64,000 nt of DNA from Protoeuglena noctilucae (lineage: Eukaryota), in the NCBI GenBank assembly GCA_958009085.1, contig OY253683.1, positions 868,001-932,000 of the forward strand, written 5' to 3'. The translations under genes and the position numbers were made by a program. Below are positions 17,276 through 44,063 of this stretch, in pieces (position 1 is the stretch's first letter; each line of letters opens with the position of its first letter). The notes below the pieces were generated by a model. The model saw only the letters and a list, made by a program, of their open reading frames with translations. It did no database searches and had not been told where the DNA came from.

Positions 17276-17281
17276 CGACCC

Positions 17282-22300: not shown

Positions 22301-24722
22301 GGGTGATGGCGTGCTGCGAATGATGAGGCCCCCTCAGGGGAGTAGCGGCTCGACGGCTGCCCATGTGGGCGCAGTGTAGGTGAAGGTGGACCTCGCCGGG
22401 TCCCTTGGGTGTAAGAGGGCGTCGTCAGGGTGCGTGCAGCGCGCGAGGGCCCGCCCGCCCCGGTACGCCGCCAGAGCGACAAGCTCCTCGGCCATAATGC
22501 GCGTCATCTGCGCGAACAGCTGTGCCGGGGACGCATCCGCCCCCGCGTCCTTCGTCAGCTGCTGCCGCCTGCGCCAGATGACCTGCACGGTCGCCCCCGC
22601 CACGACCGCCCACGTGAGCGGCCCCAACCGCGCGCCCTCCGGCACGCGCAGCAGGAAGAGGGCCGACGGGCGGAGGGGCGCCCCCTGCGCCCCCCCCGCC
22701 CACGCCACGATGCCCCTCGCCACGCGCCACACCTCCCGCGCGCGCGAGCACTCCCAGAACGCGTGGGCCGCGCTGTCCTTTCCCATGCACGCCTCCCCCT
22801 CCTCCGTCAGCAGCGGGCACTCGTCCCGCTCCGCCCAGTACATCCTGTCCTGCGTAGCCCACCCGTCCGCCAGCGTCAGCCACAGCCGCTCGTGCAGGGC
22901 GTCCGACAGCGGCAGCCCGTTCAGCGCCACCAGCGTGCGCCTCAAGCCCTCTCCCGTGACGCCGTGCCCCTCCCCCAGCGCCGCCGCCCAGCCCTCCGCC
23001 TTGCGCTCCAGCCGCTGCCGGATCGCCGCCCTGTCACACGTCGTCCTCGCCGCCTCCCGCACCGTCTAGGAGGCTAGGTCCAGCGCCGCCCTGGAGGCGA
23101 CGCCGGGGTCCAGTGCCCAGCCCGGCGCGGTGGCCGTCATGGGCCGGTAGAAGTCGTTGGCCTCCCCGCCGCCCGGGGAGGCAAGTCGCAGGCGCTCCAT
23201 GAAACCCTCCGTGAGCGCCAGCCCGTCCCACGGGTCCCATTGCCCCTCCACGTCTGGCCGGGCATACTCGTTGCCCGGCCCAAGGAGGCCCAGGTCCCGC
23301 ATAAAAGCCCCAACCACCCAGCCGAGGCCCCTCCGATCCACCCCCGGCAGCCGATCATAGCCCAGCGCGAACGCCCAGGAGACCCACGTGTCCCATCGCC
23401 GCGCCGGGTCCCGAATGCAGAGATAATGCCCCACAGTTCCGAATCCCCGTAACGCCATCGCCCTCCCCACCGGGTGCAGGAGGAGGGGCCGGCCGCCCCC
23501 CGCCGGCCGCCCAGCACCCCCCTCGTCGATCCCATCATCCGTATTGTCGTCGCCCGACGCGCCGTCGTGCACCCACGCCCCACCAGCCCTCCCATGGACG
23601 CCCGTCGCGAAGCTGTGGAGCGATGAGGCCGAATCGTCTTGGTCCTGTCCCATGTCGTTGTGGAGGGGGCCAGCTGCCCCCTCCATCGCCGGCGCCCCCA
23701 GGCCTGCCACCCCCGCGCCCGGAGCCCCCCCGCCGGCGGCACAGAGGACCCCCGGGGTGAGAAGCGACGCGCAGAGTAGATCCCCCTTTGTAGTCCCAGT
23801 GACGGGGGTGAAGAAGTCCGTAGAAGAGGCGAAACGAGAGCCGTCCGTGCCCGCCAGGCCCCCGCCGCCCACGCGCGCCCCCCGCCAGCCATGCCCGTCC
23901 ATGGCCACGTTGGACAGGCGGTCCGCCAGGGCGTTCTGCTCCCGTGGCACGTGCTCCCAAGTGATGTCGAGGCCCGCCGCGAGCCTCTGCGCCTCGGTCC
24001 ACAGCGGCACCATCGCCGGGTGCCGCAGCACCGAGCAGTCCCGCGGGTCCATGGCGCGGATGACGAGGAGGGAGTCCCCCCGGACGCGGAGCTTGGTGGC
24101 GCCGAGCTCGACTGCCGCGCGCAGCCCTCCCAAAAGCGCGGCGAACTCGGCCTGGTTGTTGGAGGCCCCGCGCACGGCGGGGCCCGCGAGCTCCAGCGTC
24201 TCCACCCCCTCGCCTGCCCCGGCCGCCAGCACCGCCCCCGCGCCAGCCGTGGACGTGTCGGAGCCGTTGCCCCGCGAGCCCCCGTCGAAAATGAGCGTCA
24301 GCAGGCCCTCCGCCGCCAGGCCGGTCCAGCGCTGCCGGGCGACCTCGTCCGTCGTGGGTGCCAGAGGTGGCCGCGCGTGCACGGGCCCGAGGGTCGCGCG
24401 CAGGGTCCCGAGGCCCTTGATGGCGTCGCAGAAGCTCTCGAGCGCCGGCAGCTTGCCCCGCAGGCGGCGGGACTCGATCAACTGCGCCACGTAGCAACCG
24501 TCCGTCTCGGGCAGTGAGAAGGGCAGCAGGCCCAGCCGGCCTGCCCCGAGCCCCTCCAGGCACGCCGTGAGGATGCCAGCGAGACCGTCCAACTGGCCGT
24601 GAGCGCCCACGCGCTTCGTGATGAGGGCGCGCGCCAGGTGCCGGAGCCGCCGCGCCGCCGTGTGCGCGTCCAGCGGGAGGGCGCCCAGCCCCCCCTCCTC
24701 CGGCGGGGGGGCATCCGCGCGT
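19368..24722 (-). mobile_element. 5'-truncated L1/Tx1-like non-LTR retrotransposon (ORF2 C-terminal part 24722-22334 plus long putative 3' region); 3' limit uncertain
   Basis: Post-RT PPEEGGLG motif. RNase H (FDGGSRGN, SNNQAEFAAL, GDSLLVI, HVPREQNALADRLSN). zf-RVT CCHC (CPL...C...DSAAHAFWEC...VW). RT core and endonuclease are absent. One in-frame TAG at 23066-23068. Confidence 0.85.
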
Positions 24723-24867
24723 GCATCCGCGCTCGGCCCGGCCCGATTTTCCGGCAAGACATGCAAAAGTAAAACGTCTGGCGCAAAAAGGAGCCCGCGT
24801 CGGGGAAAGGTCGCGATCGGGTAGGGTAAATGCACCGCCGCGACTCGATCAGGAGACAAAAGGGTCG

Positions 24868-24941
24868 GCAAGCGGACACTGGAGGTTCCAGAGTGGTCCC
24901 CCACCTCCGTACTGATCCAGCCCAACCGAGCTTGACTTCTG
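24868..24941 (-). pseudogene. 3' part (nt ~47-120) of the split 5S rRNA gene
   Basis: Reverse complement matches 17202-17275. Confidence 0.9.
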
Positions 24942-24947
24942 CACTGG

Positions 24948-25290
24948 CAGTCGTAGCCCCCCGGCCGGTTCTCGCACCTCCCCGCCCCGCACAGCCCCGG
25001 CGTCTCGGCGCACTCGTCCACGTCCACGCACCGCGCCCGGCCCCCGAACGTCCCCTGCCGGAACCCCTCCGCGCACTCGCACCGGTACGACCCCTCCTCG
25101 TTCACGCACGCCCCGTGCGGCCCGCACTCGTGGCTGCCGCTTGCACACTCGTCCACGTCCACACAGGTCGTCCCGTCAAACGCGTATCCCGCGTTGCACT
25201 TGCAAGTGAAGCTCCACCACTTGTTGACGCATTGCCCATGGGGCCCGCACAGTCCCCGGTCCAGCGCGCACTCGTCGACGTCCCAGACCC
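24948..25290 (-). pseudogene. Tandem calcium-binding EGF domain fragment (3 units), cut by the 5S junction
   Basis: DVDEC...C...C.N..GSY.C.C repeats. The third unit ends at GGYDCQC, then 5S sequence follows. Confidence 0.85.
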
Positions 25291-25479
25291 AGTCATGCAC
25301 AGCGCGGTAGCCCAGCACGGAAGAGATTGCCCACAGCACTGCGGGACAAGGAAACCTTGCAACCGTCATGTTTTGGATTGCGGCTGGCAGTGTTTTCCAA
25401 GCCTGCGCGTGTGGACCTGACCACATCGTTTGTGCATGTGTAGCGGAACGACACCATGGAGGTCGTCACAGCTACTCAC

Positions 25480-27902
25480 CCGCCAGAGAGACGAGCGCAG
25501 AGACGATGAGCGCCACTCGCTGTCCTGCTGAGGGCCACCGCTGCATCGGCGCTTGTAGTCCCTCGTCGCCGATCCTGTTTCCCTGCAGCAAAGGACACCA
25601 GGCCCCGTGTCGCTCGAGACGAGCAGCAGCTGCCCCCTGGCTCCCGATGCTATGCATAGTGCAGCAATCAATCGCAGGGACGGCAGCTTGTTTGCCAGCG
25701 GCTGCACGGGTGCGCCGATCATTCCCACGGACCTGTCCACCTCTTCCCGCGGGCTCGTCCGCCCTCGCCACCACCACTTCGGCCGGCTGCACGTCGGCCC
25801 ACCGCACGCCGGCCTCCCGCACCGCCGGCAGCCGCGACACTTGGTCCCACACGCCCCTCCGCAGGTGCGCCGGCACCCGCTCCGACTGAAACGCCACCAC
25901 GCGCCGACGATGCTCCTCGCGCTCTTGCGCCCGAAACTCTTCCTCCCTCCCAAACAAGTTTGGCCTACGCGGGTTGCGCGCGCACCCGGCCACGTGCGCG
26001 TGCGCGTCCTCCCCGCAGTCCTCCAGGCACCACCCGCACAGGTGCACCCCGCACCCCCCATCCGCCGGCGCGCACCACAGCGCCATGCACCTCTGGAAGT
26101 CCCCCACTGTCGCCGGCCGCTCACACCTCGGGCACCGCATCACATTCAGCTCCTCCTCCACCAGCTTGCGGTACGCGTCTACGGCCTTTTCAGAGTCCTT
26201 CGTCTCCCCCTCTCTCGCCAGGCGCCTCAGCTCCTCCAGCTCCTTCGCCCTCTCCTCTCTCTCGACATCCGCAGCGTGCCGTCGGGCGGCAGCGAAAAAC
26301 ATCGCTATCGCCCCTTTCTCCGGCAGCTTCTCCACCACCACCGTGCACTCGAACACCCCGTCGCACGCCTGGCCCGTGCAGTCCCGGCACTTGAGGTCCC
26401 CCGCCGCATTGAAGGCTGCCCGATTCTCCGCCAGCGTCGCCACCTTGCCCGCGAGGCAGTCGCCGCACACGCAGTGCGCTGCCCCGGTGCACTTGGCTAT
26501 CTTGCTCACGTCCTCGTCACACATGCACACGCAGCACTCCACGCGCCTGCGCGGGGGCGACGCCGGGCTGTCGGAGGCAGGCGACGTGACACAGCAACCC
26601 TTTGCACCAGCCATCCCATCGCAGATCCTCAACGCCAGAGGGTGACTGCTCGCAGTCACAGCCAGGGACACTAGCAACACCTGCATTTTACCTGGAGGCG
26701 CTGAGGGTGTCGCGAGACGCTCGTGCCGCCCTCAGCATGTCGGCCGCACTCGTCCGATCCTGGGCCTCAAATCGAAGCGCCCCCTGCACCGCCGACCGCA
26801 GCGGCTCCGGCACCGACTCAGGCACTTCCGGTAATCGCTTACGCACTATCACATCGGTCAAGATCTGGTTCCTGTTCTTGATGCCATGAGGCGGCTGTCC
26901 CGACGCTACGTGGCACAGCGTCGCAGCTAGCGCGTACGCGTCCGACGCTGCCGTGTGCGGACCCAGCTCCGTGTCCCACTGTTCGGGGGGCATGTAGTGC
27001 TCCGTGCCCATCCCATCCACGACACGAGTGCCCCGGGACGAGACCTGCGGGGGGACCACGACGGGGTTCACGGCCCATGGCTCGCCATGCACACCGATGA
27101 CGAGATGGCCAGACACCGACGCAGACTGAACCGCTAGCCACTCGCTGAGCTCCCTTGCAGCCCAGCTACGCCGCCGCCTCACCGACACCTTCATCGCGCC
27201 CTCGGCGACGGTCGCCAGCCCAAAGTCCGCCAGCAGCAAGGTGCCGCGATCGTCAATCAGCACGTTCTGGGGCTTGATGTCCCGGTGCACGATGTTGCAG
27301 TGATGCAGGTCCCGCAGACCCTCCAGCAGCTGTATCGCCACCTCCACCACTTCGTTCGGTGGCAGGGCCCCCTCCTCCGCGATGCGCTGCGCCAATGACC
27401 CCCTCTCGTACAGCGGCATGACGATGTGGAGCTTTTTGCCTATGTTGGAAATGCCCAACAGCCTGCAGGAGGAACGCGCACCACCGATCACGACACCGCA
27501 TGCACAGAGCCCGGCGTCCCGGCCGACAGTCGCAGGCAGAAGAGACAGATCCACTCACGGGCACACGCGGTTGCTGTGCATCGCCGCCTCCGCCATTCGC
27601 TGCATCTCCTTCATGCCGCGGTCGAGCACGCCCTCCCAGGTCCCCTTGGGCACACCACTACTGTCCACGTTGAATCGCTTGACAGCCACATCGCACTCGC
27701 GCGACAGCCACCGGCCACGGAACACCTCGCCCTGACCGCCCTCGCCCAATGACTCCCCGATCTGCAAGTCCTCTCCCGGAATCACGGGGACCTTCAAGGC
27801 AGCGCCTTCCGGGGTCACCGCCGGTGTGTCCGCCATCCCTGCAGGCGCGAGGAGCATGCCCATCCCTGCGGGCGCGAGGAGCATGCCCGGTTCTGATACC
27901 AT
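25480..27902 (-). CDS. TKL-like kinase - RING - IBR-like zinc finger protein (copy B) followed by a degenerate LRR-like exon; possibly a pseudogene
   Basis: [40 protein letters not shown]...C...HCVCGDC...C..C. IBR-like CPRC...CMALWC...CGVHLCGWC...[18 protein letters not shown]. Confidence 0.8.
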
Positions 27903-28797
27903 TCAACGTTTTGTTAGGGACTGGAGGCGCTGCTACCGCAGCACATGGTCCCGGTGCGGAGGCTGCACATTCTTGCGGGCGCAGCGGGCGCAGCGGGCGC
28001 CGTTGGGTCGCACGCGAGCCACGCCCGCGCCTCGGAGCTGGGTTTTATGCATCTAGCGGTTTGGTGCCAGGCGCCTGCCTTAACGCAGACAGCCTCGCTG
28101 CTGCACCTCACCCAGGTGCGGACCCCTCCGGTTGGCCCTCGACGCTCGCTTGGCCTTCGCGCGGCCCGCCATCGCGCCCTCGTCTGCGGACACGCCCGCC
28201 GCGCCCCGTCACAATTGCCGAGGCACGTGGTCCCAACACCGCAGCCGTGGCGTCCGAGGCCTCGCGTCCGCCCCGTCCTGCCCAGCACCTGCGTGTCTCA
28301 CTCACACGTCCTGCACCCGGAACCCTCGGCCCCCGAACGATGCGGCGCGGACGCAGACGAGGCCTCAAGCTGCGTGACGTGAGAAGGCCGTTTGAGCTCA
28401 CTCCGCTCGCGCGCTCGCAACCGATGGCTCAGGCTCGCACCCGATGACTCGCGAGGTGTGCGCTGCGCCGGGCCCGAGCCTCGCGAACGGTCTCCTGGCC
28501 GCGCGGGGAAGGCCCCGTGTCGGTTGCGCGCCAGACCTGCGCAGGAGTGCCGCCGTCTGCGCCGATTCGCGCGCCGGCCCGGCCACACGTCAGCAAGTGT
28601 CTCCGATCGCGTCCCTGCACCCAACGATTCCCCCGGGATGCGCGGAGGCAGCCTCGACCGACCCGGCCGCGTTCATCCTTCACTTTCTATCGTCCGATCT
28701 ATCAACATAACATGGGCCCTGTCTACCGGATGTCGTTGCTGCATGCCCATCCAGTGCACTGTCAATGCGCTATCGCTGTGCGCTTTTCGCGACTCGT

Positions 28798-29551
28798 TCA
28801 CAAAGACGCCAGCACGGTGGCCCACAAGGGGTTCAAGATGGCGAGGATCTCGTGCATCTCTTCCACCGACGCGGTGTTGTCACCTGCGGCGAGAGGCAAG
28901 ACGGAAGGCTTGTGACAGCTGCTGGATCGAGGCCAACATGGCTTGCAGGAGTCCCCATCCCGGGGCTCACCGTCGTCGTCAATGATGTCCATGACCGCCT
29001 GCGCGAGGCAGTGGCCGTAAATCTTGTCGCCGCGCTGCACGGCGGTCTTGGGCGTGTAGGCCTCCACGAACCAAGCCCCATCCGTGACGCAGACCTCGTC
29101 CGATTCGGACAGGTCGTCCATCAAGGACTCCGTGGTGCTGCGGGCAGTCAGATAGGGCCACGGATCGGCGCGTGGGCGCGAGGGCCGTTCGCATGGACCG
29201 CACGATGCGATTGGGGGCCGCCTCGGTCTCACCACACCGTCAGCCTTGCCACAGCGTCGCGGAGACCGCGGATCGCGTTCTTGTCGAAGCATGTCTCTGC
29301 GAGCGGGTGGAGATGGCGTTCGCAAAAAGCGATTAAAACGGTTTACGGTTTGGGTCAAAACCACGCGCGGTTTCGCTGCCGACGAAAACACGCAGTTCCA
29401 CGCAGAATGCATGCTCACCCTCCACATCCCGATCCCAGGGCGACTGGTTGGCCAGCTTTACAGCCGAAACCAGCGCGGAGTTGATGGCCATCGCGGGAAC
29501 GGCCAGCGCCGCGCCCAAGAGCGCAGCCAGGGCGATTTTCCGCGACAACAT
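28798..29551 (-). CDS. Small secreted protein with an EF-hand-like loop (paralog A), spliced
   Basis: Signal peptide MLSRKIALAALLGAALAVPAMA. Spliced loop DDDG|DNTASVEE. TGA at 28798-28800. Confidence 0.7.
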
Positions 29552-29896
29552 GGCTGCCTGTGTGTGCTGTGCGGTGGTGGCAGTAGAGGGATGTGAGTTG
29601 GAGGGCGCTACGGCTCGCAGATCAGAGACATGCAGATCAGAAACATCAGAAACAGCAGAAACAGACGCGAGTTCCCGTGCGCGAAAGCGCCTAAGGACGG
29701 ATTCTATATCCCCTGTTGGCGTCCGGAGGGCTCGGGCGTCCTGCAGGGCGGCCTGGATGCGCATGCATGACGCGCTTCTCGTTGCTCAGAGCCTTTCGCG
29801 CGCAAAGTCCGGGCCGACCACCAGGTCCGGATCATTTCAACGCTAGCAGCCCTAGCTACACTGCTATCCGCGACGATCACTGGCCACGCGCGAGCA

Positions 29897-31380
29897 TCAG
29901 CACTGGGCATCCACGAGATCCGAGAGCTCGCGATCGTTCTCCTTGACGTAGTCGATGATGCTGCCTGCGGACATCGAACCAAAGAGACCGTCCGCGGTCG
30001 CGCCCGTCGCGTTCGGCGGACGCCGCAGCGCCGTCGCGAAACGACCGTTGAGGCGGCGCCACCCTCGCCGCGCTCACCGATCTGGTGCACGTCATCGGGG
30101 CAGAAGGAGTTCTTGCCCAGCGACTGAGTGAGCAGGATGTCGATGGCGCTGCGGGAGGGGCGAAGTGAGGGTCCTCGGGTCACGCTGGCGGACATGCGGC
30201 CGTGCGCCCCAAGCCAAGCCAGGCAAGCCATGCAGTACAGCTCGCGCTCGCACCAGGTGATCTCCTTGACCTCGCGGGGGCTCAAGTCGAAGAGGTCGGG
30301 GGCGAGCAGGACCAAGTCGGCGACCTCGCCAGTCGACACGCAGCCATCGCCTGCGGGGCGGGACGGGGGCGGCCGGTTGGTATGCTGCCACGAGAAGCGT
30401 GTCCGGGGCACGACCGCATCGCATCGTATCGCTCACCGTCCGTGTCCATGATGGGCATGAGCGCGGTCGTCACGCACTCGCCCACGGCCTCCCCCACCGT
30501 GCGGATCTGGTCCCCCTCGTCTGCACGCGCTTACGACGAGGGATCAAGCTGCGACCGCCACGCGCTCTGCACGGATCCCGAGCGCAGCAGTGGCAGCAAT
30601 TGCACTCACCCATCATCATGAAGTCGAACATCTTGCCCTCCATGTCGTTCATGCAGAGCTCATCCGAGTCGCTCAGGTAGTCCATGACGGCCTCCGTCGA
30701 GCTGCGTGGGCGACCGCGAGCCTCTCCTTCAGCGGATACGCGCGCGGCAGCTGCTGGCGTGACCCCACGCCGCGCGCGCGGGGGCGAGAGGCAGTTGCAT
30801 CTCTCACCAGGTGATGAAGTCGAGCGCGGCGTCGCGGATGACACGGATGCCGTCCTTCGGCAGACAAACATCTGCAGAGACCAGAGAGGGGGGCGGCGCG
30901 CGGTCAGTCCCACGGCCGGCACGCAGAACGCACAGTTGGAGAACGGGTCAACGGCCGTCCCAGCCGTCGGCGTGGGGGGCGGAAACAGGCAAATCATCGC
31001 ATCCCGGAACTTGTGTCCGTTTTCTTCGACGAATTCCGATCGATTGGGTGCGGGGGGCATCGGGATGCGCGGCAAGGCCACCCGAGGCCATCCATCGGTG
31101 CCCCCTGCCGCTCGGGGGGCATCGCGTGCGCCCTTGGCCCGTGGGGATCACAGAGCTCGAAATCTGCGCCTCAGGCGCAGGATCGCCCTACCCCGACGCG
31201 CGGTACGCCGCGCCGGGGCCGCGATCGGCTTTCCCTCGCAGGGGCGCGCGCGGCCTCACCCGAGGGGTCCAGGTCGCCGTTCATGACCTTGAGAACCGTG
31301 GCGACGTGGTCGCGGACGGCCAGCGCGGGGAGGGCCAGAGCGGACGCCGCGAGGGCGCCGATGACAGCCTTGCGCATCAT
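29897..31380 (-). CDS. Small secreted protein with an EF-hand-like loop (paralog B), spliced
   Basis: Signal peptide MMRKAVIGALAASALALPALA. STEAVMDYLSDSDELC aligns with TTESLMDDLSESDEVC of paralog A. Loop DTDG|DGCVSTGE. Confidence 0.7.
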
Positions 31381-32044
31381 GGTATCGTCGTGGAGGTGAG
31401 CGAAGCGAGGTGGCGAGCGAGATGTAGCCGGCTCATGGCGCGTAACCTGCGAGTCTGGATTTTCCAAAGCCCTCAGGGGTTTCCCCTGGGTTAACTGCCC
31501 CTGGGTTGACTGCCCATGCTCAGTGCCCCCCGGATTCGCGTGCGCGCAATCTAGGAGAGTAGGAGCATTGTGGAGCCCGTCCAGAGACGCGGTTGGAGAT
31601 CTGCATGCATCTCCGGCCATGTCTCGTGGCTGGACAGGTGCGGTTCGCGACGATTTTATCGTGCGTGGGGGACTTACGTGCGCCAGAATCCGCGCGCTTG
31701 CACGCCCGTGGCGCGCCTGAGAAACAGCGTCCGTCGTGGGCCATGCCCCGCGCGACTCTCCGCGGACCCGCGGTGCCCACCTGCGCTTGCTGTGCTCCGG
31801 TACTCATTTGGAACCTGTACACGGATGCGCACGGCTTCCCGCCGTCCCATGCGGGCCTCCCGCAGCCTCTCATCAGCCAGGCCCTGGAAGCTGACTCAGG
31901 GGGCCCTGCTGAGGAGCTGCTGAGGGGCCGCAGACGACGCTCGATCCTCCCCTCCCTCCCGACGCCATGCCTGCAGGGCGGGGGCTGGCGGAGGACGCGG
32001 AATGTGTGCCGCTCCCCTTCGTGTCGGCCTGCTGCCCCCCCCAA

Positions 32045-35000
32045 ATGGCCGCTCACGCGTCGTGGACGGTGGACCGCTTCATCCGACTCCAGAAAATTGG
32101 CGAGGGCTTTGCGAGTCACGTCTTCCTGTCCATCGATACGCTCGGCCGAATGCGAGTTGCGCTGAAGGTGTGCCGACCTCGCGTTGGGAGTGCGTCTGGA
32201 CCGCGCCGCCGCGGCTCTGTGACGCGTCACCTGACCGGTTATGCGCTTCTCTTCTTCAGATATATCAGAAAAAGAACCTGACCCCGGCGCTCCTGGCCGC
32301 GGTGCGCCACGAAGTATCGGTCCATGGCCGGTGCGTCCACCCGCACGTCCTGCCCCTCCTGGCCGCATTCGAGGACGGCGGCTATCTGTGCATCGTCACG
32401 TGGTGAGCACCGCGCCCAGGCGGAGGTCCCAGGGACTTCGCAGCCCCCGCACGACTGCACGTCATGTGCGCTGGCCTGCACGGCTTGCAAGCACCCGGTC
32501 CCACACTGGCTGCCAGCGAGTTTGATACCGCGTTTTCCCCCTCTCACCCAGCATTGCGGAGAACTCGGATCTCCACCGCCGCCTCCCCGACATCCGCCGC
32601 GACGAGCCGACCGTGGTCAAGCACATCTTGGGGCCCCTGCTCTCGGCCCTCGCGGCCCTCCACATCGCGGGGTACATCCATCGGGACATCAAGCCTGAAA
32701 ACATCATGCTGCAGGCGAGGGACGGCTGCACACGCCAGGGCCGCCTGCATACTCGCTCCCATGCCCGCACCTCACACGCCCTCGCCGCCCTTACACCCTC
32801 TTCCGCTCATTGCCTGCACCCCCACCCCTGCTCCCGCGCTCATTCCCGGATTTCCGGCACTCCCTACTCCCAACCCTACCCTCTGACCCACCCCCGCTCC
32901 CACACCCACGCCCGCCCTCTTGGCCACCCTCACTGCCGCCCTCGCACCCTCAGCCCCACCCTCACACCGCCTCCCCCGCCCCCCCCACTCCCCCCAGGGC
33001 TCCCACGCCCTCCTCGCGGACTTCGGCTTCGCCATCTGCCACCGCCGCCGCCGCGCCGTCACCCGCCTGGGCACGCTGCAGTTCATGGCGCCCGAGGTGG
33101 TGCTCAACGACCCCGACGACAAGGCCACGCATCGCGCCGCGGTGCCCCGGGACGTGCGCCTGCCATATTCTGACGCGGTGGACGTGTGGGCCTTGGGGGT
33201 GGTGGCGTACGAGTGCCTGACGGGCACGCTGCCCTTCCCGGGGACCACTGACGATGAAGTGGTGGAGGCCGTGCTGAGGAGGAGGCCGCAGTACCCGGGG
33301 ACGCTCAGGTGAGGGGGAGAGGGAGGGTGGCAGTGACGGTGGAAGCGGTGAGAGTGAGGGTGGCAGAGCGAATGTGGCGGGGTGGGGGAGAGTGAGGGAA
33401 GCGAGTGCCATGATTGAGGTGATGCGTCTTTCATGCTGCGATCGTCGTCATCGTGTCATCGCTTCTCGTGCTTTCCAGTCGCGATGCGGTGGAGTTCCTG
33501 GAGCTGTGCCTGGCCTACGACCCCGGCAAGCGAGGATCGGCCGTCGACCTCTACTACCACCCCTTCGTGAGTGTCACGTTGATCACGCTCACGTTCACGC
33601 GCACATTCAGCCACGCACATTCAGCCACGCACATCCAGCCACGCACACCTCGCTGCGCGGCACGTGTGCCTGCTGCGCTTCTCACGAGCACGTGTGCCAC
33701 CTGTACCGTCCATGACATGTCGTACTTGCACAGCTGCACTGCTCACTCATGGCTCCCACCCCACGCACCCAACCCCGCCCCTCCCATCTTTCAGGTCCGA
33801 AAGCACATGCCGCGCGACCACTGGCACAGGCTGGAGCCGTCCCATTGGGCTTCCCCCGAGGCAGCCGCCGCGGCCATGGCGGCATTCCCCGCCCTCGTCC
33901 CATCCATGTACCAGGTGAGCGCGCGACGTGCCATGCGGGTCGCAGAATGCGAGGATCGATCGTCGGAGCCAGCTCCGCCCACGACGAGCCGACTGCGGTC
34001 GACGGAAGCAAGCACCGCAAGCGGCGTGCGCCTCAGAGACGCCCACACCCCTCCCTCGCCCCCCCTTCCACACCCATCCCCCTCCACCCCTCCTCCCCCA
34101 CCCCGCTCTCTCCTCCCCTCTCCCCCAGGCACCCCCGCCAGGCACCGCCGACGACGGTGCCGGGCCCGACTCCCCCACCCCCTCCGCCATCCGCCGCGCG
34201 TGCGGCTCCTTCGCTCGCCCCAACCACGAGCCGGACGCCGTCTCTCTCGGAGACCAGCGCGGCCGCTTCCGCGCCCAGCACTCCCAGGTCCAGTCCAGCG
34301 CGCCGTGCCCCTCGCCCTCCGTCGCGGGGTCGGCCGCCAACTCGCTCCCCATGGGGAACGCCCCGATGCCCTGGGGCCCGCTCACGCGCGACTGGAGCGA
34401 CCCCGCCAACGCCCCGCTCGGCCACGGCCACGGCCACGGCCACGGCCGCGCCGCGCCCAGCCGCATGCGCGCCGGCGACCCCAACGTGGCCCTCCGCGCC
34501 CGCGCCGTCCAGGGCTCGTTCGCCCAGGCAGCCGTCGCCACGGTGCACAAGTCCGCGCTCAGCTCCCCCGCCCTCGCGTCCGCCCGTGTCCGCTCCCCCC
34601 CCCGGCCCCCCCAAGTGGCGCCCCAGGCGGGGTCATCCACCACCGGCCCCTCCCCCTCCGGCCGCAACTCGGTCACGCTGGGCATCGGGCTGTGGCACAG
34701 CCTCTACCGGGTGCGGCCCGCGCCGGCGGGCGTGCTGCACGGCACCGCGTCGGGGGAGGGGGGCGCCAGTGAACGGACCACGCAGCCGGGTGACGCGGTG
34801 TGCGGGCGGGGCGGGTCCGTGGGTCGGCCTCTGCGCCTCGCGGACGCCGGGCCGTCGACGGTGGAGGGCGGGGTGGTTGAAACGGTCGAGTCTGGGGAGG
34901 TTCTGAGGGCGAAGTCGTTCAAGGCGGCGAGGGCTGCGGGGGGGAGCAGGGGCGCAAGGGGGAAGGTGAGGGCGGGATGGGGTGGGTGGGGAGTGGTGGA

Positions 35001-35547
35001 GTGGGTGGGGGGAGTGGAGGTGAGGGCGGGATGGGGTGGGTGGGGAGTGGTGGAGTGGGTGGGGGGAGTGGAGGTGAGGGCGGGATGGGGTGGGTGGGGA
35101 GTGGTGGAGTGGAGGTGAGGGCGGGATGGGGTGGGTGGGGAGTGGTGGAGTGGGGGGGGGGAGTGGAGGTGAGGGCGGGATGGGGTGGGTGGGGAGTGGT
35201 GGAGTGGGTGGGGGGAGGTGGAGGGTGTAGCGGTGGGGTTCAGCGGAATGCAGGTGCGCGGAAGGGCCACGTGGGCTTCTGCGCGATTCGCTCACCTCAC
35301 CTCACCTCACCTCACCTCACCTCGCCTCACGTCACCTCACGTCACCTCACGTGACCTCACCTCGCCTCACGTGACCTCACGTGACCTCACCTCACCTCAC
35401 CTCGCCTCACCTCGCCTCACCTCGCCTCGCCTCACCTCACGTGACCTCACCTCACCTCACCTCACGTGACCTCACCTCACCTCACCTCACCTCGCCTCGC
35501 CTCCCTCGCAGGGTTTTTTCCAACGCGTGTTCGGTTGTCTGGGATGA
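32045..35547 (+). CDS. Aurora-like Ser/Thr protein kinase, multi-exon
   Basis: IGEGFASHVF, VALK, VRHEVSVH...HPHVL, HRDIKPEN, ADFGFA, GTLQFMAPE, DVWALGV. Last exon GFFQRVFGCLG-TGA. Confidence 0.85.
34962..35222. repeat. G-rich tandem repeat (~5 units, each with AGGTGAGGGCGGGATGGGG) in the last kinase intron
   Basis: Read directly. Confidence 0.9.
35291..35500. repeat. (CTCAC)n pentamer satellite in the same intron
   Basis: Read directly; includes CTCGC and GTGAC variants. Confidence 0.95.
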
Positions 35548-35728
35548 CTCACTTTTGGCCCCATCCACGAGGCCTCTCGACTATGCTTGTAGCCCCTCCA
35601 GCATGCATGCGCTGCGTTCGGCACGCCCACGCTCGCCCCCGACATTGGGCGACCACCCTGAGCTGGCGACTCTGAGACAAGATGCCGGCCATTTTGTTTT
35701 TTTTTTGCTTTTTTTGTTTTTTTTGTTT

Positions 35729-35918
35729 GCCTCTTATCCCTCACCTGGCATCTTATCCCTCACCTGGCATCTTATCCCTCACCTGGCCTCTTATCCCTGA
35801 CCTGGCCTCTTATCCCTGACCTGGCCTCTTATCCCTGACCTGGCCTCTTATCCCTCGCCTGGCCTCTTATCCCTCACCTGGCCTCTGATCCCTCCCCTGG
35901 CCTCTTATCCGTCACCTG
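35729..35918. repeat. 19-bp tandem repeat GCCTCTTATCCCTCACCTG (~10 units)
   Basis: Read directly. Confidence 0.9.
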
Positions 35919-37049
35919 CGGCGACGGCGCAGCACCGCGTCCTGCCGCTGCAGCCCCGCAGTCCGCATCGCGGCCTAGCCCCAGGAGCCAGTGAGACTGG
36001 CTCTCGCTCTTTCGCGCAAGGCACTTCCCCGCCGCACCTCACCTTAGGACGATGGTTTGATCTCTCGCCCGACGCGGGGCGCCCGTTCTTGACCTCGCTT
36101 CAGGAACCTGCGGCTATGTGCACCCGCCGGCCTCGTGCGATCGCCGCGACCGCTCCTTGTGTTCTGCGCCTTTCCCTGTATCACCCGGGGGGCCTGGAGA
36201 GTCACGCGGGCTGCGCCTGCCGTGGCGTCCCTCGCTGGCCATCGCAGCGTCCCACGTGGCGCGTGATAGAATCCAGCCTGCGCCCCTTTTCGCCACAGTA
36301 CAGACGACGGGTGTCTTGTCGTTTCTTTGGTAGCGCACGGGTCGACCTTTCCACGTGTGCCGCGCCAGTCTGCGCCAGTCTGGCGTCGCTGGGGCGGGGC
36401 ACTTGAGTGTCAGCGAGGGGGCGAGAGCTGCGTCAGTTATCCATTCGCCCAGTTGAAGAGCACAGTTGTACTCGCGGGCGGGGGCGCGCACCCGCGTAGA
36501 GGGTGTGGAGGATGAGCATGCTGACAGACAACGACAAAGCCCCCTGAAAGGGTTAGTGTTTGCTTGTGCATACACTTCGGGGTTCTTGCTTGTGGGAGCA
36601 CATTAAGCAGCAATCACCCGCCTCCAACTCAGCATCTCCTGAAGTCCCTCTCTCACTTCCTGCACCCTGCCTTGCCGTGTCGCTTTCACAAAGCATCGAT
36701 GTCGTCTGGCAGCGCAGAGCTGCAGAGGAGCGCAGTGACGGTGTGTCTCTGTGTCTAGCACAGCGTTGAGTGGAAATGCAGGGCGCATGCATGAACAGTC
36801 CGGCATGGTGAGGGGAGCGGGGTTGCAGGTATGACGGGAGTTGCGGGTTCAAAACCTGAAACTAGGAAAAGGGGTAACACACAGGATAGGGTTGGCTCCA
36901 GACTAGCTTGCACAGCTGCGCCCTCCACAGCAGCAATGCTCAGCATTGGTATGTCGCTCCTTTCCCGCACCCCGACACCTGGCAGCCGCTGTGCTGCAGA
37001 CGGGACTCGTCGCCAAGCCTCAACAGGCCATACCCGCCACACTTGCTGA

Positions 37050-38020
37050 CAACCACGCCCCGCACCTCCGCCTGACCACCATCTAGGCACCACACCCCGT
37101 GACCCTCCTTGGACCCCGTGATGCGCCCCCCCTGCACCACGATCTTGGACCCCTGGCCCATGCTCCACACGCCACAGCGCTTGCAGTCGGCGATCTGCAC
37201 GTCCCGCACCTCCGCCTGCCCGCCCTGATCGCACCACACCCCGTGACCCTCCTTGGACCCCGTGATGCGCCCCCCCTGCACCACGGCCTTGGACCCGGCA
37301 TCGAAACACGCCACGCCACAGTCCTTGCAGTCGGCGATCTGCACGTCCCGCACCTCCGCCTGACCACCCTTTTTGCATACAACCCCGTTGCCCTCCTCGG
37401 ACCCCGTGATGCGCCCCCCCTGCACCACGGCCTTGGACCCCTGGCCGTGGATAAACACGCCACAGCTCTTGCAGTCGGCGATCTCCACGCCCCGCACCTC
37501 CGCCTGACCACCCTCTTGGCACGACACCCCGTTGCCCTCCTTGGACCCCGTGATGCGCCCCCCCTGCACCACGGCCTTGGACCCGGCATCGAAACACGCC
37601 ACGCCACAGCCCTTGCAGTCGGCGATCTCCACGCCCCCCACCTCCGCCTGACCACCCTTTTGGCACAACACCCCGTTACCCTCCTTGGACCCCGTGATGC
37701 GTCCCCCCTGCACCACGGCCTTGGACCCGGCATCGAAACACGCCACGCCACAGCTCTTGCAGTCGGCGATCTCCACGTCCCGCACCTCCGCCTCACCACC
37801 CTCTGCGCACTGCACCCCGTGCTTGTCCTCGGACCCCGTGATGCGCCCCCCCTGCACCACGGGCTTGGACCCCTGGCCGTGGATAAACACGCCACAGCTC
37901 TTGCAGTCGGCGATCTCCACGCCCCGCACCTCCGCCTGACCACCCTCTTGGCACGACACCCCGTTACCCTCCTTGGACCCCGTGATGCGCCCCCCCTGCA
38001 CCACGACCTTGGACCCCTGG
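37050..38020 (-). repeat. Seven 144-bp coding repeats (48-aa beta-helix units)
   Basis: CGTGATGCG recurs at 37117, 37261, 37405, 37549, 37693, 37837 and 37981 (period 144). Confidence 0.95.
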
Positions 38021-38334
38021 TTGTAGCAGATCACGCCCGTCTTGGGAGCCCCCGACACCTGCGTGTCCGTCAGCACCACATGACCGCCCCCCTCGCACTG
38101 CACCCCCGTTCCCACCACCCTCACGCCCTCCACCCGCAGCGGCCCGCCCCCGGCGGCCCTCAGAGCGTACCCCTCCCCCAACGCGGCGCTGGATGCCCGC
38201 AGCGTCCCGTTCCGCACCGTCAAAGACTGTCCACTCCGCACTGTCACCTCTGACGACAGCCTCCACTCCCTTCCCTCCAGGTCGATGACACCCCCTGAAG
38301 GGACCACCCCCCGCTCGAGGAAAGCTTCTCTCTC

Positions 38335-38551
38335 CGCCACCCGCCTCTCCTCCGCCAACCGCCTCTCCTCCGCCACCCGCCTCTCCTCAGCCACCCGCCT
38401 CTCCTCAGCCACCCGCCTTTCCTCCGCCACCCGCCTCTCCTCAGCCACCCGCCTCTCCTCAGCCACCCGCCTCTCCTCCGCCAACCGCCTCTCCTCAGCC
38501 ACCCGCCTCTCCTCAGCCACCCGCCTCTCCTCAGCCACCCTCCTCTCCTCC
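38335..38551 (-). repeat. 18-bp coding tandem repeat, (EERRVA/EERRLA)x12
   Basis: Read from the ORF and the DNA. Confidence 0.95.
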
Positions 38552-41269
38552 ACCGCCCCGCCCCTCTCCTCCTGGCCCACCCCCACCCCACCGGGCGCAT
38601 CCCCCGCCCACTCCCCCAGCACCGGGTCCGCCCTCAGAGCCTCCCACACTGCCCGCCGCTCCCCCGCCGCCACCTCCCGCACCAGATACTCCGCCACGCG
38701 CTCCTGCGCCCACTGCTTCTTGCCCTGCTCGAACAGCGCCATCGACGCGAACACGTTCCCCGGCCGCAGGTTCCTCTCGCATCCCCGCACGTGGTCGTGC
38801 ACCTCAGCGTGCTCGAACACCCCGAAGCACCACCCGCAGATCTCCGCCCCGCACCCCTGCCGGTCGCTGCACTTGAGCGCCAGGCAGTCGTCCTCGCTCT
38901 CCCGCTCCACAAACGCCCGTCCGCACCGCCCGCACTTGGGCGTCACCGCCTCCGCCACCGCCAGCTTGTGCCGCGCCACGGCCTCCTCCCGGCTCCCCAC
39001 CCGCGCACGCGCCAACTCCCCCCGCAGCCGCTCCACCTCCGCCGCCAGCTCCTCCGCCTCTCGCGCCCGCGCCCCCGCCGCCACGTTCGACATGAACTGC
39101 CTGGCGTCCGCGTCCTTCAGCACCGCCACGATGCCTGCGCTCGCGAACGTCCCCCCGCACGCGTGCCCCAGCTCAGAGCACGGCACGTTCCCCAGGTGCC
39201 CCGTGAACCACCCCGCGGGGTCGTCCGCGTGCGCCGCCAGCATGCGTGCCAGGTCCTCGTCGCACAGGTAGTGCACGACGCCGCCCCCGCTGCACCCCAC
39301 CGCCCGCCTTCGGGGTACCAGCCCCATACATGTCACTCACTCCACCTCGCCCCGCGTCGGGTCTGCCGCTTCCAGCGCACGCCTGCGGCACAGGTCGGAA
39401 ACTCTTTCTAGCACACGATGTGACGAAGCGGCCACAGAAAGCCCGTAGCATGCCCCGCCCGCACTCGCCTGCACTCCCTCGCCGCCGCCAGCATGTCCGC
39501 CACGCTCGCACGCTGCGCCGGGTCCCTCTCCAGCGCCCGCAGCGCCGCCGACCGCAGCGGCTCCGGCACCGACTCGGGCATCTCCGGCTTGGCCCCATTC
39601 ACGCACACCGCGAACACCACCTGCGCCATGCCCTGCCCCGCGAATGGCTCCTGCCCCGTCGCGAGGTGCGACAGCGTGGCTGCCGCCGAGTACGCGTCCG
39701 ACAGCGGCGTGATCTCCTTGGCCGCGTCGTACTGCTCGGGACTCATGAACCCGAACGTGCCCCACGCTTCCTGCCGCATGGTCACCCTTGAGTGCCGCTG
39801 CAAGCGTCAGAGTCATGAGACGTGCCTTCACCGGCATGACGTAGCAGCGCGCTAACCCAAGCAGCGCGCCCCATGGCCAACGACGCGCGCCCTCACCGCC
39901 ATCGACGCCCGCTCCTGCGATATCTTGGCCAGGCCGAAGTCCCCCAGCAGCACCGTGCCGCGCCGGTCCAGCAGCAGGTTGTGCGGCTTCACGTCGCAGT
40001 GCACCAGCCCCGCGCCGTGCAGGCTCGCCAGCCCCTCCAGCATCTGCTCCGCCATGTCCACCAGCTCTCCCACCGGCAGCCCCGTCCCCAGCTCCCGCAC
40101 CCGCTGCGCCAGCGACCCGCGCTCCGCCAAGGGCATCACCAGGTGCAGCGCGCCGTCGATGGTCGACGTCCCCAGCACCCTGCGGACGCCGACGATCGCC
40201 CACATGCTCGCGACGAGCCCGCGACGAGCCCACGACGAGCCCGCGACGAGCCCGCGACGAGCCCGCGACTCGGGGCACTCCCCGCTCTGCGGCGTGCATG
40301 CACCGCCATTCACCGCCATCCCGCAAGCGACGCACCGGCACACGTGGGCGTTGTTCACCGTCGCCAGGGCCAGCCGCTGCACCTCCTTCGCCGCCCGCTC
40401 GTTCGCCCCCGCCGCCCCCGCCCCATCCGTCAGCCGCTTGACGGCCACGTCCTGCGACGTCCCCTGCCTCCGCCACGTGCCCCGGCGCACCTCGCCCTGG
40501 CTGCCCTCCCCGGCCCCCAGCACCTCTCCCAGCAGTATCTCACTCGCCGGAATATCCGGGATCCTCGCACCGAGGTTCATCGCGACGCCTCGCGCCGTTC
40601 GCGGCCAAGATGGCGGGGCACGCCGGCGTCGCGCTGCGGGGGCGCAGCACGGCGGAGTGCAAGCGAGCCGGCCGAAATCGGCCCCGCTTGCATGTTCACA
40701 GGCAACGCAGCCCCCCGGAGGTCTCTGAGCGCGCGTCTTATGCTTTCTGCCCATCGTGCTCTCCCGCAACGTCGCCCCCGCCACTTCCGGAGCCCGCTCG
40801 CTCGTTCCTGCCGATCCATGCCGTCAATACAGCTTATTGCGACTGATAAGCCTCCCCGATCATCCTCCGCAGCTCACCTTTCTCTCGAGGGCAGCACGGG
40901 CGGTGGCAAGACGCTTTGCGGTTGTTGGGCACCACTGCCGGCACTTTGGAGTAATACAGCCCCGCAGGTGACGCTCAGGGACTCAGTAATCCCCTGCGCC
41001 CGTGCCCCAGCACGCCAGACGCATGCCCGAGGTGCCAGACATGTCTGTGCACGTCACGTGCAGCACGTGCAGCCAGAGGCGACGTCGCCCGTCGCAGGCC
41101 CATCCTCCGCGACAGATCAACCTCTTTCCATCGCGTGCGCTGCTTCCTCGAGAAGGACACCACAGCAACCATGAGTCCGCGTGGCGCCCGCGCTGCCGGG
41201 CCGCAAGGTGGGACCACCGCGGTCAGGCTGCCTTGCCACGCCGATGCTGTCCTTGCTCCCCAGTCTCCT

Positions 41270-41694
41270 CAGGCGTGCCTCGACCTTGCCCTGTGCGCCA
41301 CGCGATCTCGGCGCGGCCCCGCTGCGTCGCGCGCGGTCCATGGCACCCCGCGCACCTCCGCGATCTCGGTGCCCTGGGCCCCCCGATGGCATCGCGTGTT
41401 TGCCACGGCCCATCGCTGGCGAGCGGAGGCCCCGTCGTTTGCATTCCACGCCCCGACGGTCCGCTTTCGTGGCAGCCACGGGGTGCCACCCTGACCGTCC
41501 CGGGACCCGCCCAACGGGCTGGCTGTTCGCGCCCGTCTGGAAGGCCCCTGGCCGGCCAGCTGCTGCTGCCGTGCCTGGCGTGGGTGTCGTTCGCCGGGGT
41601 CCTCAACGCCTGGATCTGGCGCCAGAACCCCAGCAACGGGGAGGGCAAGGAGCGCGGCGTGGTGGGCAGGGAGAAGAAGGGTGAGGGGTGCTGA
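41270..41694 (+). pseudogene. TspO/MBR-like remnant with internal deletion
   Basis: GWLFAPVWK is joined out of frame directly to AGQLLLPCLAWVSFAGVLNAWIW; the central helices are missing. Confidence 0.7.
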
Positions 41695-42365
41695 GCCATG
41701 ATGATGTGGGATGCGCTGCGTGGGTGCGGGATGTGACACTTGCGTCACACGCATGACCAAAATGGCACTCTACGCTGCTGGGACCGCTGTCGCGGCGCCC
41801 GAGGTCAGGAGCGGCGGCAGGGACACCGGCAAGGCGAAGCAGAAGGGTGGCGCGTCCTGCCGATGCACCGTCATGTGACACGACCGCCTGACCTCGTGAC
41901 CCGTGATCCGTGCATCGTGTCATGGGCGGTGTGATGCCGAGTGCAGCACAGCCGAGTGCGAGTGCGAGATCATCCATGCAATGCACCACCCATGTGCCAC
42001 CAGGCCTCGGCCCCTCACAGGCAACTGAAGCTCCGTATCACCGGAGGCCGATCAGCTGCGTTAAGAACGTCGCTTGCCGCGCGTTGTTGCATGCTGGTGT
42101 GGTGGCAGCTGTGGTTGTCGTGCGCATGAAGGTGGCTCTCTCGGGTCGATGCGCCTTGCACGCCACTGCTGGTGGGCATGGCTTAGCCCAAGCCGGCAGA
42201 GGCCAATGCTGATCGGTGTGCCTTCACTGGGAGAGGGCATGGCGAGCACCTGCTGTTGTCAAGTCGCGTTTGAAAGGAGGCTCGCAAGCGAGGCAAAACA
42301 TGAAACGCTGCCGAGCTGGTTGGGGGCACAGACGGCAAAGCCGGGGCGTGTGCTGTATACATAGA

Positions 42366-43651
42366 TCATGTGTACCAGAGGATGATCAGGAAGAGGATGA
42401 TGAGAAGCGAGAGTAGTACAATCAGTGTCAAACAATCAGTGTCAAACGCTTTAATCCGGCACCCCGACACCTGGCAGCCGCTGTGCTGCAGACTGGAACC
42501 AAGCGACCTATACAGGCCATGCCCGCCACACTTGCTGACAACGACGCCCCGCACCTCCGCCTGCCCGGCCCATGAGCACGCCACCCCAGCATCGCCTGAA
42601 CCTGTGATGCGCCCCCCCTGCACCATGGCCTTGGAGCCCCGGTCACCGCTTAACACGCCACAGCTCTTGCAGTCGGCGATCTCCACGCCCCCAACCTCCG
42701 CCTGACCACCCTTGACATACGTCACCCCATGGCTCTCGCCCGTGTTTGCTATGCGTCCCGGACGATCGTCGCGTGACTCCCCGTTCCTGTTGACCGCACA
42801 CCTGACTTGGGTGCGTCCGCCACGTGTGCGTCCGTCAGCACCACATGACCGCCCCCCTCGCACTGCACCCCCGTTCCCACCACCCTCACGCCCTCCACCC
42901 GCAGCGGCCCGCCCCCGGCGGCCCTCAGAGCGTACCCCTCCCCCAACGCGGCGCTGGATGCCCGCAGCGTCCCGTTCCGCACCGTCAAAGACTGTCCACT
43001 CCGCACTGTCACCTCCGCCGACAGCCTCCATTCCCTTCCCTCCAGGTCGATGACACCCCCTGAAGGGACCACCCCCCGCTCGAGGAAAGCTTTTCTCTTT
43101 GCCCTGCTCTGCAGCTTCTACTCCCCAACTCCCAATCTTGATAGGGAGTTTATTATCATTTTCCCTAATAATACTAATACTAATAGTAACTAATACTGAT
43201 AATACTCCCTAATAATACTCCCTATCGTACTCCCTATCATACTGGAAACAAAAATGACTACGATGGACGCATTCACCCACTCGTACCGCCACAGAAGGCT
43301 CCATATCCAAATGGAAACCATAGCGACTATGACGGACGTAATCACCCACTTGTACCGCAACAGTGGGTCCTGGCGTCCGCGTCCTTCAGCACCGCCACGA
43401 TGCCTGCGCTCGCGAACGTCCCCCCGCACGCGTGCCCCAGCTCAGAGCACGGCACGTTCCCCAGGTGCCCCGTGAACCACCCCGCGGGGTCGTCCGCGTG
43501 CGCCGCCAGCATGCGTGCCAGGTCCTCGTCGCACAGGTAGTGCACGACGCCGCCCCCGCTGCACCCCACCGCCCGCCTTCGGGGCACCAGCCCCATGCAT
43601 GTCACGCACTCCACCTCGCCCCGCGTCGGGTCCGCGGCTTCCAGCGCATGC
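42366..43651 (-). pseudogene. Rearranged paralog (copy C): RING fragment + AT-rich hydrophobic segment + short beta-helix
   Basis: 43370-43651 is nearly identical to 39100-39382, and 42834-43095 to 38069-38330. Frameshifts and TAG stops are present. Confidence 0.85.
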
Positions 43652-43656
43652 CTGCA

Positions 43657-43705
43657 CTGGGTTCTGATGGGACCAGGTATTTTCTCGGTGGTTTGATCCG
43701 CTCAC
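43657..43705 (-). pseudogene. 5' part (nt 1-49) of the split 5S rRNA gene
   Basis: Matches 17156-17204 and has the canonical CCCATCAGAAC loop. Confidence 0.9.
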
Positions 43706-44014
43706 GATGAGAGATGTCGAAATCACAGTATATGTATGCGGAAACGTGCGTCCAGGTACAGTATACGGCCCCTCCCAAAACTTCGCCCATCTATTAGCAC
43801 TACATTTCTGAGACCGAATCCGGTGACGCCGACCCAAAAAGCCCCGGCCCGGCGACGCACTCCGGCACCCTCTGGCGCATCGAGCGCCCTGAAACCGGCG
43901 CCCGCGAGCCGCTTCATGCCCGTCCCACCGGCGCGTCGGGCGGCATATCCGTCCAGGACACGCGCTGCATCCCTTCGTCGTCGCGTGTCAGCCACCCTCG
44001 TCGCCGCGGGCCCC
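43706..44014 (-). repeat. Upstream spacer of the right 5S unit; right boundary of the island
   Basis: Reverse complement of 16848-17155. Confidence 0.95.
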
Positions 44015-44063
44015 GTCACGCGACCCGACCCGTGCGCCTCCCGTGCGCGAGCCGCCGTGGTCC

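Follow-up and report, generated by a model that had tools for sequence, protein, structure and literature searches.

How can a 5S ribosomal RNA (rRNA) gene hold 18.7 kb of ordinary genes and yet have lost none of its own bases? The question is raised by a stretch of 64,000 nucleotides of Protoeuglena noctilucae DNA (GenBank assembly GCA_958009085.1, contig OY253683.1, positions 868,001 to 932,000 of the forward strand), called the window in what follows, which is GC-rich (0.58-0.73 per 2-kb bin), intron-bearing eukaryotic DNA. A unit of about 575 bp centred on a 5S gene is present there twice, once intact on the plus strand and once inverted and split on the minus strand. We propose that an ordinary piece of chromosome was, in all likelihood, inserted into one of these two inverted copies by repair of a break or of replication, and not by a mobile element. 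More tentatively, and with somewhat less than even confidence, we may see the template as a circle (or a tandem) that would have been copied over slightly more than one turn while a broken or stalled 5S gene was under repair.

The interrupted 5S rRNA gene

A single full 5S gene is recognized by Rfam (RF00001) in the window, at 17157-17275 on the plus strand (85.5 bits for a gathering score of 38, model positions 1-120), and neither of the split pieces attains the gathering score by itself. The parts of the two units are these:

16843..17421, plus strand: intact 5S unit, with about 313 nt of upstream flank, the 5S gene (17156/17157-17275) and 146 nt of downstream flank (from Rfam and repeat pairing)
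43706..44017, minus strand: upstream flank of the split unit, 97.8-98% identical to 16843-17156
43657..43705, minus strand: 5S nt 1-49 of the split copy (alignment, 47/49), 43657-43659 being a CAG that can be read as target duplication
24942..43656, minus strand: inserted segment, 18,715 bp unambiguously, 18,718 bp with CAG, the unit from repeat to repeat being 18,713 bp
24868..24941, minus strand: 5S nt 47-120 of the split copy, with nt 50-120 (24938-24868) identical to the intact copy and the common CAG at 24939-24941
24722..24867, minus strand: downstream flank of the split unit, 98.6-99% identical to 17276-17421

By a repeat finder, 16848-17204 is matched to 43657-44013 (357 nt, 98% complementary) and 17202-17421 to 24722-24941 (220 nt, 99%); blastn gives 97.8% for 16843-17204 against 44017-43657 and 98.6% for 17202-17421 against 24941-24722. 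Beyond the unit, the surroundings of the two 5S copies are unrelated. In a three-way alignment both minus-strand pieces abut on the intact copy, with only CAG in common and 0 bases missing: they are two parts of one 5S gene, nt 1-49 (47 of 49 letters identical) and nt 47-120 (74 of 74), broken between nt 49 and nt 50, with all 120 nt kept. The initial annotation of this DNA had described such a collinear split without loss, and its coordinates are correct, its 5S numbering beginning one base (G, 43705) ahead of the Rfam start. The intact form skips 18,718 bp relative to the interrupted one, and a paralogous empty site, at 98-99% identity, lies 7 kb from the split copy. The two differing letters of nt 1-49 make CAGAA of the split copy what is AAAAA in the intact one (17194-17198), the former being nearer to the Rfam consensus.

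Contigs derived from the reads of four runs were compared with the region 24500-44200; X4 is organism A, X1 and X6 are marine metagenomes of another study and X9 is RNA. A contig from an RNA library (472 nt, depth 7.6) agrees with the variant letters of the intact copy over flank, gene and flank.

The neighbourhood of both units has peculiarities of its own. A palindrome of 4 kb (17448-21425) starts 26 nt after the intact 5S unit, with arms at 17448-19167 and 19714-21425 (95%) and a spacer of 546 bp; among open reading frames (ORFs) of at least 130 aa overlapping the region from 21.4 kb onwards, no Pfam family was found at the palindrome. On the side of the split unit, the last dozen or so letters (GCGCGGATGCAC) of the downstream flank are tandemly repeated at 24709-24732 on the minus strand and present once in the intact unit; an unrelated multi-copy repeat begins past this duplication, with a loose contig end at 24708 in three runs. 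The GCGCGGATGCAC tandem looks like the templated filler of error-prone end joining.

Two junctions in register

Read on the minus strand, with slashes at the boundaries, the left junction is ...GAACCCAG/TGCAG/GCATGCGCTGG... and the right junction ...GGCTACGACTGCCAGTGCAG/AAGTCAAGC.... The same nine letters stand at both, where they had been noticed initially:

24939..24947, minus strand: CCAGTGCAG at the EGF/5S junction, read ..C-Q-C-R in the EGF frame
43652..43660, minus strand: CCAGTGCAG at the 5S/exon junction, CCAG being 5S nt 46-49 and TGCAG the acceptor-like end before the exon, read ..Q-C-R

The 9-mer occurs exactly twice in the window, both times on the minus strand and 18,713 bp apart. 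This count is unremarkable, 1.4 occurrences being expected and 46 of 100 shuffles reaching 2; what deserves notice is that the two copies are in register at the two junctions. Among 2.0 million random position pairs of the window, in-register identity has a frequency of 2.6e-5 for at least nine letters and of 1.7e-3 for at least five. The 9-mer is, furthermore, in the same codon phase (Q-C-R) in the two open frames.

It would be tempting to see here a target duplication of 9 bp. This was considered and set aside: a 5S target with five extra letters would be needed, and features of a transposable element (TE) are absent. The TGCAG that is doubled is part of the insert, not of 5S, so that target duplication cannot account for the 9-mer, and the strict duplication is restricted to CAG, as had first been stated; the intact copy reads CCCAG/AAGTC.

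The nature of the two ends is understood by reference to three paralogous genes that lie within the insert:

24942..27902, minus strand: gene C, with a kinase, a Cys-rich RBR-like exon and three calcium-binding EGF (cbEGF) repeats, its 3' end cut after the fifth Cys of the last EGF
36940..40823, minus strand: gene A, with a kinase exon, an intron of about 84 nt, a Cys-rich RBR-like region, an 18-bp repeat (ERRVAE) and 144-bp beta-helix repeats
42455..43655, minus strand: gene fragment B, degenerate duplicate of gene A, truncated at its 5' end and devoid of kinase, starting at the 5S junction

The left end of the insert is placed 5 nt upstream of an exon which, in both intact paralogs, follows an intron ending in cGCAG/G. 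It is a native acceptor, since gene C has the same kind of intron (..CCAG/gtaaaa...cgcgcag/GCG) before its RBR-like exon. At the right end, a calcium-binding EGF repeat breaks off after its fifth Cys (...GGYDCQC), the preceding repeat in frame having six. The paralogous introns and the count of cysteines agree with the initial description of a segment that starts at a splice acceptor and ends inside an EGF exon. Homology between A and B ends at GCAG, four letters before the exon; upstream of this point, A has its intron and kinase exon, and B the 5S gene. At position -5 of the acceptor a C is found in both intact paralogs (ccgcag/G in A, cgcgcag/G in C) and a T in fragment B, this T being the letter found at the EGF end.

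Gene content of the insert

What fills the 5S gene had been called a gene patchwork. This description is not supported: the filling looks like one ordinary, gene-dense and partly expressed chromosomal segment, with ten spliced introns and three paralogous kinase/RBR-like genes of a single local family, of which B and C are at the cut ends. The introns, seen in the RNA contigs of X9 as eight CT..AC and two GT..AG joints, tell us that the segment is genomic DNA and not a cDNA. Beside genes A to C the segment has:

28426..31355, minus strand: at least two genes rich in introns, belonging to no known family (no Pfam match), whose RNA contigs are the deepest of the segment, with 8 CT..AC joints in X9 at depths of 285-1549
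31560..33480, plus strand: protein kinase gene with introns (Pkinase 1.4e-13 and 4.3e-8), with 2 GT..AG joints in X9

Pfam recognizes a kinase and EGF repeats in gene C (Pkinase 1.8e-30; EGF_CA 4.5e-24, in 3 stretches), and a kinase and a beta-helix in gene A (Pkinase 1.5e-20; Beta_helix 9.3e-55). The Cys-rich exon had been named a RING exon, a label that Pfam does not sustain: no family came up at E <= 0.01 for 25472-26731 or 43342-43701, and no family of RING or IBR type for 36940-39336. It is by an Atlas feature search that the gene A region comes to stand beside IBR/RBR clusters, at 0.90-0.94, and this is a lead only. The Atlas clusters closest to one protein of the window are for the most part from haptophytes, a weak hint at a haptophyte-like alga. 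A protein search for longer paralogs of the junction genes gave none at E <= 1e-5 among 8000 candidates, and a search for near relatives returned 35 proteins, the best with 50% identity over the beta-helix part only, and is uninformative on architecture.

Fragment B is a degenerate copy of the 3' two thirds of gene A, in blastn blocks of 80-98% identity to 36963-39386; no RNA cover was seen over 42239-43552 (depth 0 in X9). At 43098-43369 of the fragment, an AT-rich block of about 270 bp with short internal repeats takes the place of about 770 bp of coding sequence. In gene A, the codon at 39337-39339 (minus strand) is an in-frame TGA; its counterpart in fragment B is TGC, which encodes the first Cys of a CxxC motif; judging from this codon, gene A, though the more complete of the two paralogs, may be a pseudogene or be spliced differently. 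When 39100-39386 of A is set against 43369-43655 of B, all six differences fall in the first 71 nt from the junction, followed by 216 nt without any, with neighbouring blocks only 80-95% identical. We considered a cluster of mutations in proximity of the break and rejected it; in view of the divergence of the neighbouring blocks, the identical tract of 216 nt is better read as gene conversion, which was probably recent.

Tandem repeats are found at 34900-36000, 36968-38187 and 38278-38619, with units of 10 bp (CTCAC-type, about 19 copies), 19 bp (10), 144 bp (beta-helix, 7-9) and 18 bp (ERRVAE, 14). Contigs of the DNA runs break at the dense tandem repeats, and X1 and X6 are nearly without depth over 35012-35668.

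The halves of the split gene are undecayed, the copies of the 5S unit differ by about 2% and the paralogs inside the segment are, apart from the identical tract of 216 nt, 80-95% identical. With divergence so low in the unit and paralogs that are far older, we can understand the insert as an old chromosomal segment that moved fairly recently.

Read support and 5S copy number

The right junction is present in the reads. A contig of 1904 nt (24912-26815), with 0 differences to the window, was found in X4, X1 and X6, that is in three runs from two studies; it begins at the first 31-mer that distinguishes the EGF/5S junction from intact 5S and runs unbranched into gene C. Its depth is 141.8 in X4, 9.93 in X1 and 14.8 in X6, the other contigs of the segment having 75-161, 7-12 and 13-18, and is about two thirds of that of the upstream flank (139, 15.8 and 21.3, in the same order), where most 31-mers are common to both unit copies.

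The joint of the intact form (24938 to 43657) has a depth of 953, 49.9 and 71.4 in X4, X1 and X6, which suggests about 5-7 5S copies with an uninterrupted nt 49/50. Contigs have loose ends at 24866/24867 and 43711. As these are the borders of the 5S gene, the other 5S copies must have different flanks, at least two or three of them. The 5S genes seem to be few and dispersed, not gathered in one tandem array, and no other 5S gene broken at nt 47-50 was met among the contigs listed.

A proposed repair mechanism with a closed template

Marks of an insertion mediated by microhomology in the course of repair are found here: microhomology at both junctions (CCAG and CAG, of 4 and 3 nt), the 120 nt of the target kept, with no loss, and neither terminal inverted repeats nor other element termini. 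The initial annotation had put forward capture by break repair or microhomology, and repair of a break or of replication with the help of microhomology stands as the best class of explanation.

From the layout of the locus, its junction letters and genes, and the one junction observed in read contigs, we infer a circle, its priming and an order of events, which would run as follows. The segment would first have been circular or, less likely, tandemly duplicated, with a unit of 18,713 bp, and at the closing joint the cbEGF exon (...GACTGCCAGTGCAG) would have been fused to the end of the intron before the RBR-like exon (..GCAG/GCATGCG) by way of a GCAG microhomology. The 5S gene, with its 3' end free (...AACCCAG, nt 49), would have annealed to the CCAG that lies just ahead of this joint, and synthesis would then have copied one full turn plus TGCAG, which makes TGCAG a putative terminal redundancy. 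The new end would have annealed again, via CAG, to 5S nt 47-49, synthesis resuming at nt 50. The predicted product is 5S(1-49)-TGCAG-exon...EGF-CCAGTGCAG-5S(50-120), without loss of any 5S base and with the 9-mer at both junctions. In a variant of the scheme, the circle would have been opened by a cut staggered by 5 nt and, after fill-in, ligated into a blunt break.

Such over-unit copying of a closed template would explain all nine letters with microhomologies of only 4 nt and 3 nt. The letters would agree because the end of the EGF and the start of the exon would be contiguous in the template (...GACTGCCAGTGCAG/GCATGCG...). The T at -5 in fragment B would also be expected, since the letters before GCAG would come from the EGF side. 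This T and the common Q-C-R codon phase lend the circle weak support. The single-copy look of the segment and its unbranched right end would fit a transient excised circle better than a surviving tandem donor.

Several points have to be held against all this. The T at -5 amounts to one letter. Neither a donor nor a circle joint nor a deletion scar turned up in the window or among the read contigs listed, and in scans of metagenome contigs the 24-mer on the exon side of the left junction had 0 matches, as did a 30-mer from the 3' part of 5S. In three runs the contig is unbranched at 24939-24971, which speaks against an abundant circle joint, or a second identical copy with another continuation, and requires that the intermediate be gone. 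To our knowledge, repair synthesis that goes round an 18.7-kb circle more than once is not commonly documented. Turning to the insertion itself, the contig of the right junction has 30 letters (27 of them unambiguous) on the 5S side, one below the rule of 31 letters for a bridging contig, 30 being the limit for a contig of 31-mers that runs into a repeated gene; the left junction (43656/43657) is not among the contigs listed; and the assembly may itself derive from one of the two studies.

Competing explanations

Capture of stray DNA at breaks is common, and a linear chromosomal fragment might have been captured at a double-strand break of the 5S gene by non-homologous end joining (NHEJ) or microhomology-mediated end joining (MMEJ), the 9-mer being then in part microhomology (CAG) and in part coincidence. 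The CAG is indeed there. TGCAG is frequent in this DNA (2.0e-3 per position), where it matches the local acceptor consensus as well as Cys-Arg/Ser codons, and the templated filler of 12-13 nt at 24709-24721 shows that error-prone joining has been at work in the region. On this account, however, both ends of the fragment need the same five letters (1.7e-3), preceded by four letters that are those of 5S nt 46-49, a joint requirement of about 2.6e-5, and the T at -5 is left unexplained. Linear capture is unlikely.

Replication with several template switches, of the microhomology-mediated break-induced replication (MMBIR) or fork stalling and template switching (FoSTeS) type, might also have built the locus from linear templates, perhaps in the same event as the inverted 5S duplicate and the 4-kb palindrome. 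It would account for microhomology at both junctions and for a target that lost no base, and the region is a disturbed one, with inverted 5S units, the palindrome at 17448-21425 and the filler at 24709-24721; signatures of this sort are among those described for complex insertions in PMC5120786. With linear templates, however, the identity of the 9-mers has no explanation. The palindrome arms (95%) and the pair A/B (80-95% outside the conversion tract) are, besides, older than the pair of 5S units (98-99%), and such different identities imply that the features are not all from one event. We regard this possibility as quite unlikely.

An assembly misjoin at a repeated 5S gene must be considered wherever, as here, the gene is multi-copy (a depth of 953 for the intact-form joint versus about 140 in X4), assemblers being prone to err at repeats; the left junction missing from the contigs listed and the possible common origin of reads and assembly, both mentioned above, point the same way. 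Two complementary junctions that restore the whole 5S gene to the base are, however, not expected of a misjoin, and three runs have the 31-mers of the right junction, with a depth like that of the unique DNA alongside. An artefact is very improbable.

There remain mobile elements, or a recombinase, with specificity for 5S genes and the gene block as cargo. The idea has precedents: the transposon Dada-5S (PMC8869645) and the zebrafish long interspersed nuclear element (LINE) Mutsu (PMC10946416) are described as inserting specifically into 5S genes, and targets of Dada cluster near the A box in tRNA genes, according to PMC8869645. The insert has none of the corresponding machinery. In all, 174 ORFs were scanned with Pfam, namely 98 stop-to-stop frames of at least 130 aa (21.4-44.1 kb) and 76 of 75-129 aa overlapping the insert, and no domain of a transposase, integrase, reverse transcriptase or endonuclease was above the cut-off inside 24942-43656, the presence of a Dada model in Pfam being unchecked. 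A match to TNP-like_RNaseH_C stayed below threshold (22.2 bits for a cut-off of 24, with no stretch passing) and comes from a frame other than that of the beta-helix repeats at the same place. The insert lacks terminal inverted repeats: once the right end is reverse-complemented, all that it has in common with the left end is the palindromic TGCA. At most 3 bp of target (CAG) are duplicated, compared with the 6-7 bp of Dada; the termini lie in exons of truncated, recognisable host genes, the initial annotation too having seen no transposon termini; and the depth looks single-copy. As for a non-LTR (long terminal repeat) retrotransposon like Mutsu or R2, the insert has no reverse transcriptase or endonuclease and it does have spliceosomal introns. 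A crossover at a CCAG core in the style of tyrosine recombinases was considered too. It predicts a right junction ..GACTGCCAG/AAGTC, the observed one being ..CCAGTGCAG/AAGTC, and is rejected because the junction that it predicts is without TGCAG. A mobile element as the agent is most improbable.

A domain that might have been taken for part of such an element is found outside the insert, just beyond the split unit:

23905..24292, minus strand: RNase H (RVT_3, 2.3e-12 at aa 402-520 of window:23066-25465:-; aa 391-520 of window:23069-25465:- in the ORF scan), in a multi-copy repeat

The contig depth of this repeat at 24588 is 721, versus about 140, in X4. An open frame of 799 codons (23066-25465, minus strand) runs from the EGF repeats through the 3' part of 5S and its flank into the RNase H; in DNA so rich in GC it may be there by chance.

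Finally, a retrocopy of the spliced mRNA of gene A as the origin of fragment B is a weak candidate: the kinase exon of A ends in ..GAGTGCAG, and its spliced junction AGTGCAG/GCG does resemble that of B, but the extra match amounts to the T and two letters that 5S also supplies.

Relation to known systems

Intron gain of the introner type, which Huff and co-workers reportedly described in 2016, is said to proceed by insertion with duplicated splice-site motifs, and the duplicated ..CAG motif at both ends of the insert, one copy of which acts as acceptor, is reminiscent of it. Here, however, the topology is reversed, with genes inside and 5S halves outside, and an intron or introner reading is rejected, since no offset of the 9-mer both starts with GT or GC and ends with AG.

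Replicative insertions with microhomology are described events, and those of FoSTeS/MMBIR type in the cases presented in PMC5120786 resemble ours in being non-transposon segments with microhomology at both junctions, no loss in the recipient and truncated genes at the ends. They differ in that they are human whereas this one is from an alga, and in that the 5-nt terminal redundancy seen here points to a closed template. The reintegration of circular DNA has likewise been described, in work on extrachromosomal circular DNA (eccDNA) of which the reviews PMC9527254 and PMC9578701 give instances: there too a segment with ends of the microhomology type moved to an unrelated locus, and a single copy is what a transient circle would leave. 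The over-unit terminal redundancy is, in contrast, a proposal of the present analysis, as is the circle itself.

With Dada-5S and Mutsu (PMC8869645, PMC10946416) the locus shares a 5S gene interrupted at a defined position, in a family of multicopy RNA polymerase III (Pol III) genes that tolerates such events. Those are repeated elements with enzymes of their own, Dada-5S being DNA transposons with a transposase and 6-7-bp target duplications (PMC8869645) and Mutsu a LINE of zebrafish 5S (PMC10946416), whereas the present insert is made of host genes and lacks these features. The authors of the review PMC10946416 state that they knew of no report of a TE inserted within a 5S gene, yet a table of the same article lists Mutsu and Rex3 'into 5S'. 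In the literature on haptophyte 5S genes, no split nuclear 5S gene appeared among the matches listed.

Significance

The initial annotation had spoken of a fragile or targeted site adjoining the region bound by TFIIIA. A single event is not enough to establish that 5S genes are either, and we hold it to be highly implausible that nt 49/50, presumably at the edge of Box A and of the internal promoter if these lie as in Xenopus, is a recurrent site of Pol III-linked breakage or integration that takes up large circular gene cassettes. If it were, the alga would have in its 5S genes a route for the relocation of gene clusters, and the 9-mer would be the footprint of a dedicated integration step.

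We can understand this locus as one more instance of a type of event already known, microhomology-mediated insertion or reintegration of circular DNA, and not as a new system. The case is unusually legible, with the empty site next door. The event left behind it one 5S pseudogene, one gene fragment deprived of its kinase and one gene truncated in its EGF repeats, and its two junctions can be used as strain markers. For the biology of this eukaryotic alga it means that a block of working genes of 18.7 kb is seen to have moved without the help of a transposon, and the letters at its junctions constrain the mechanism towards a closed template copied over little more than one turn. If the circle was real, this would be a natural case of germline gene relocation mediated by circular DNA outside animals, yeast and plants.

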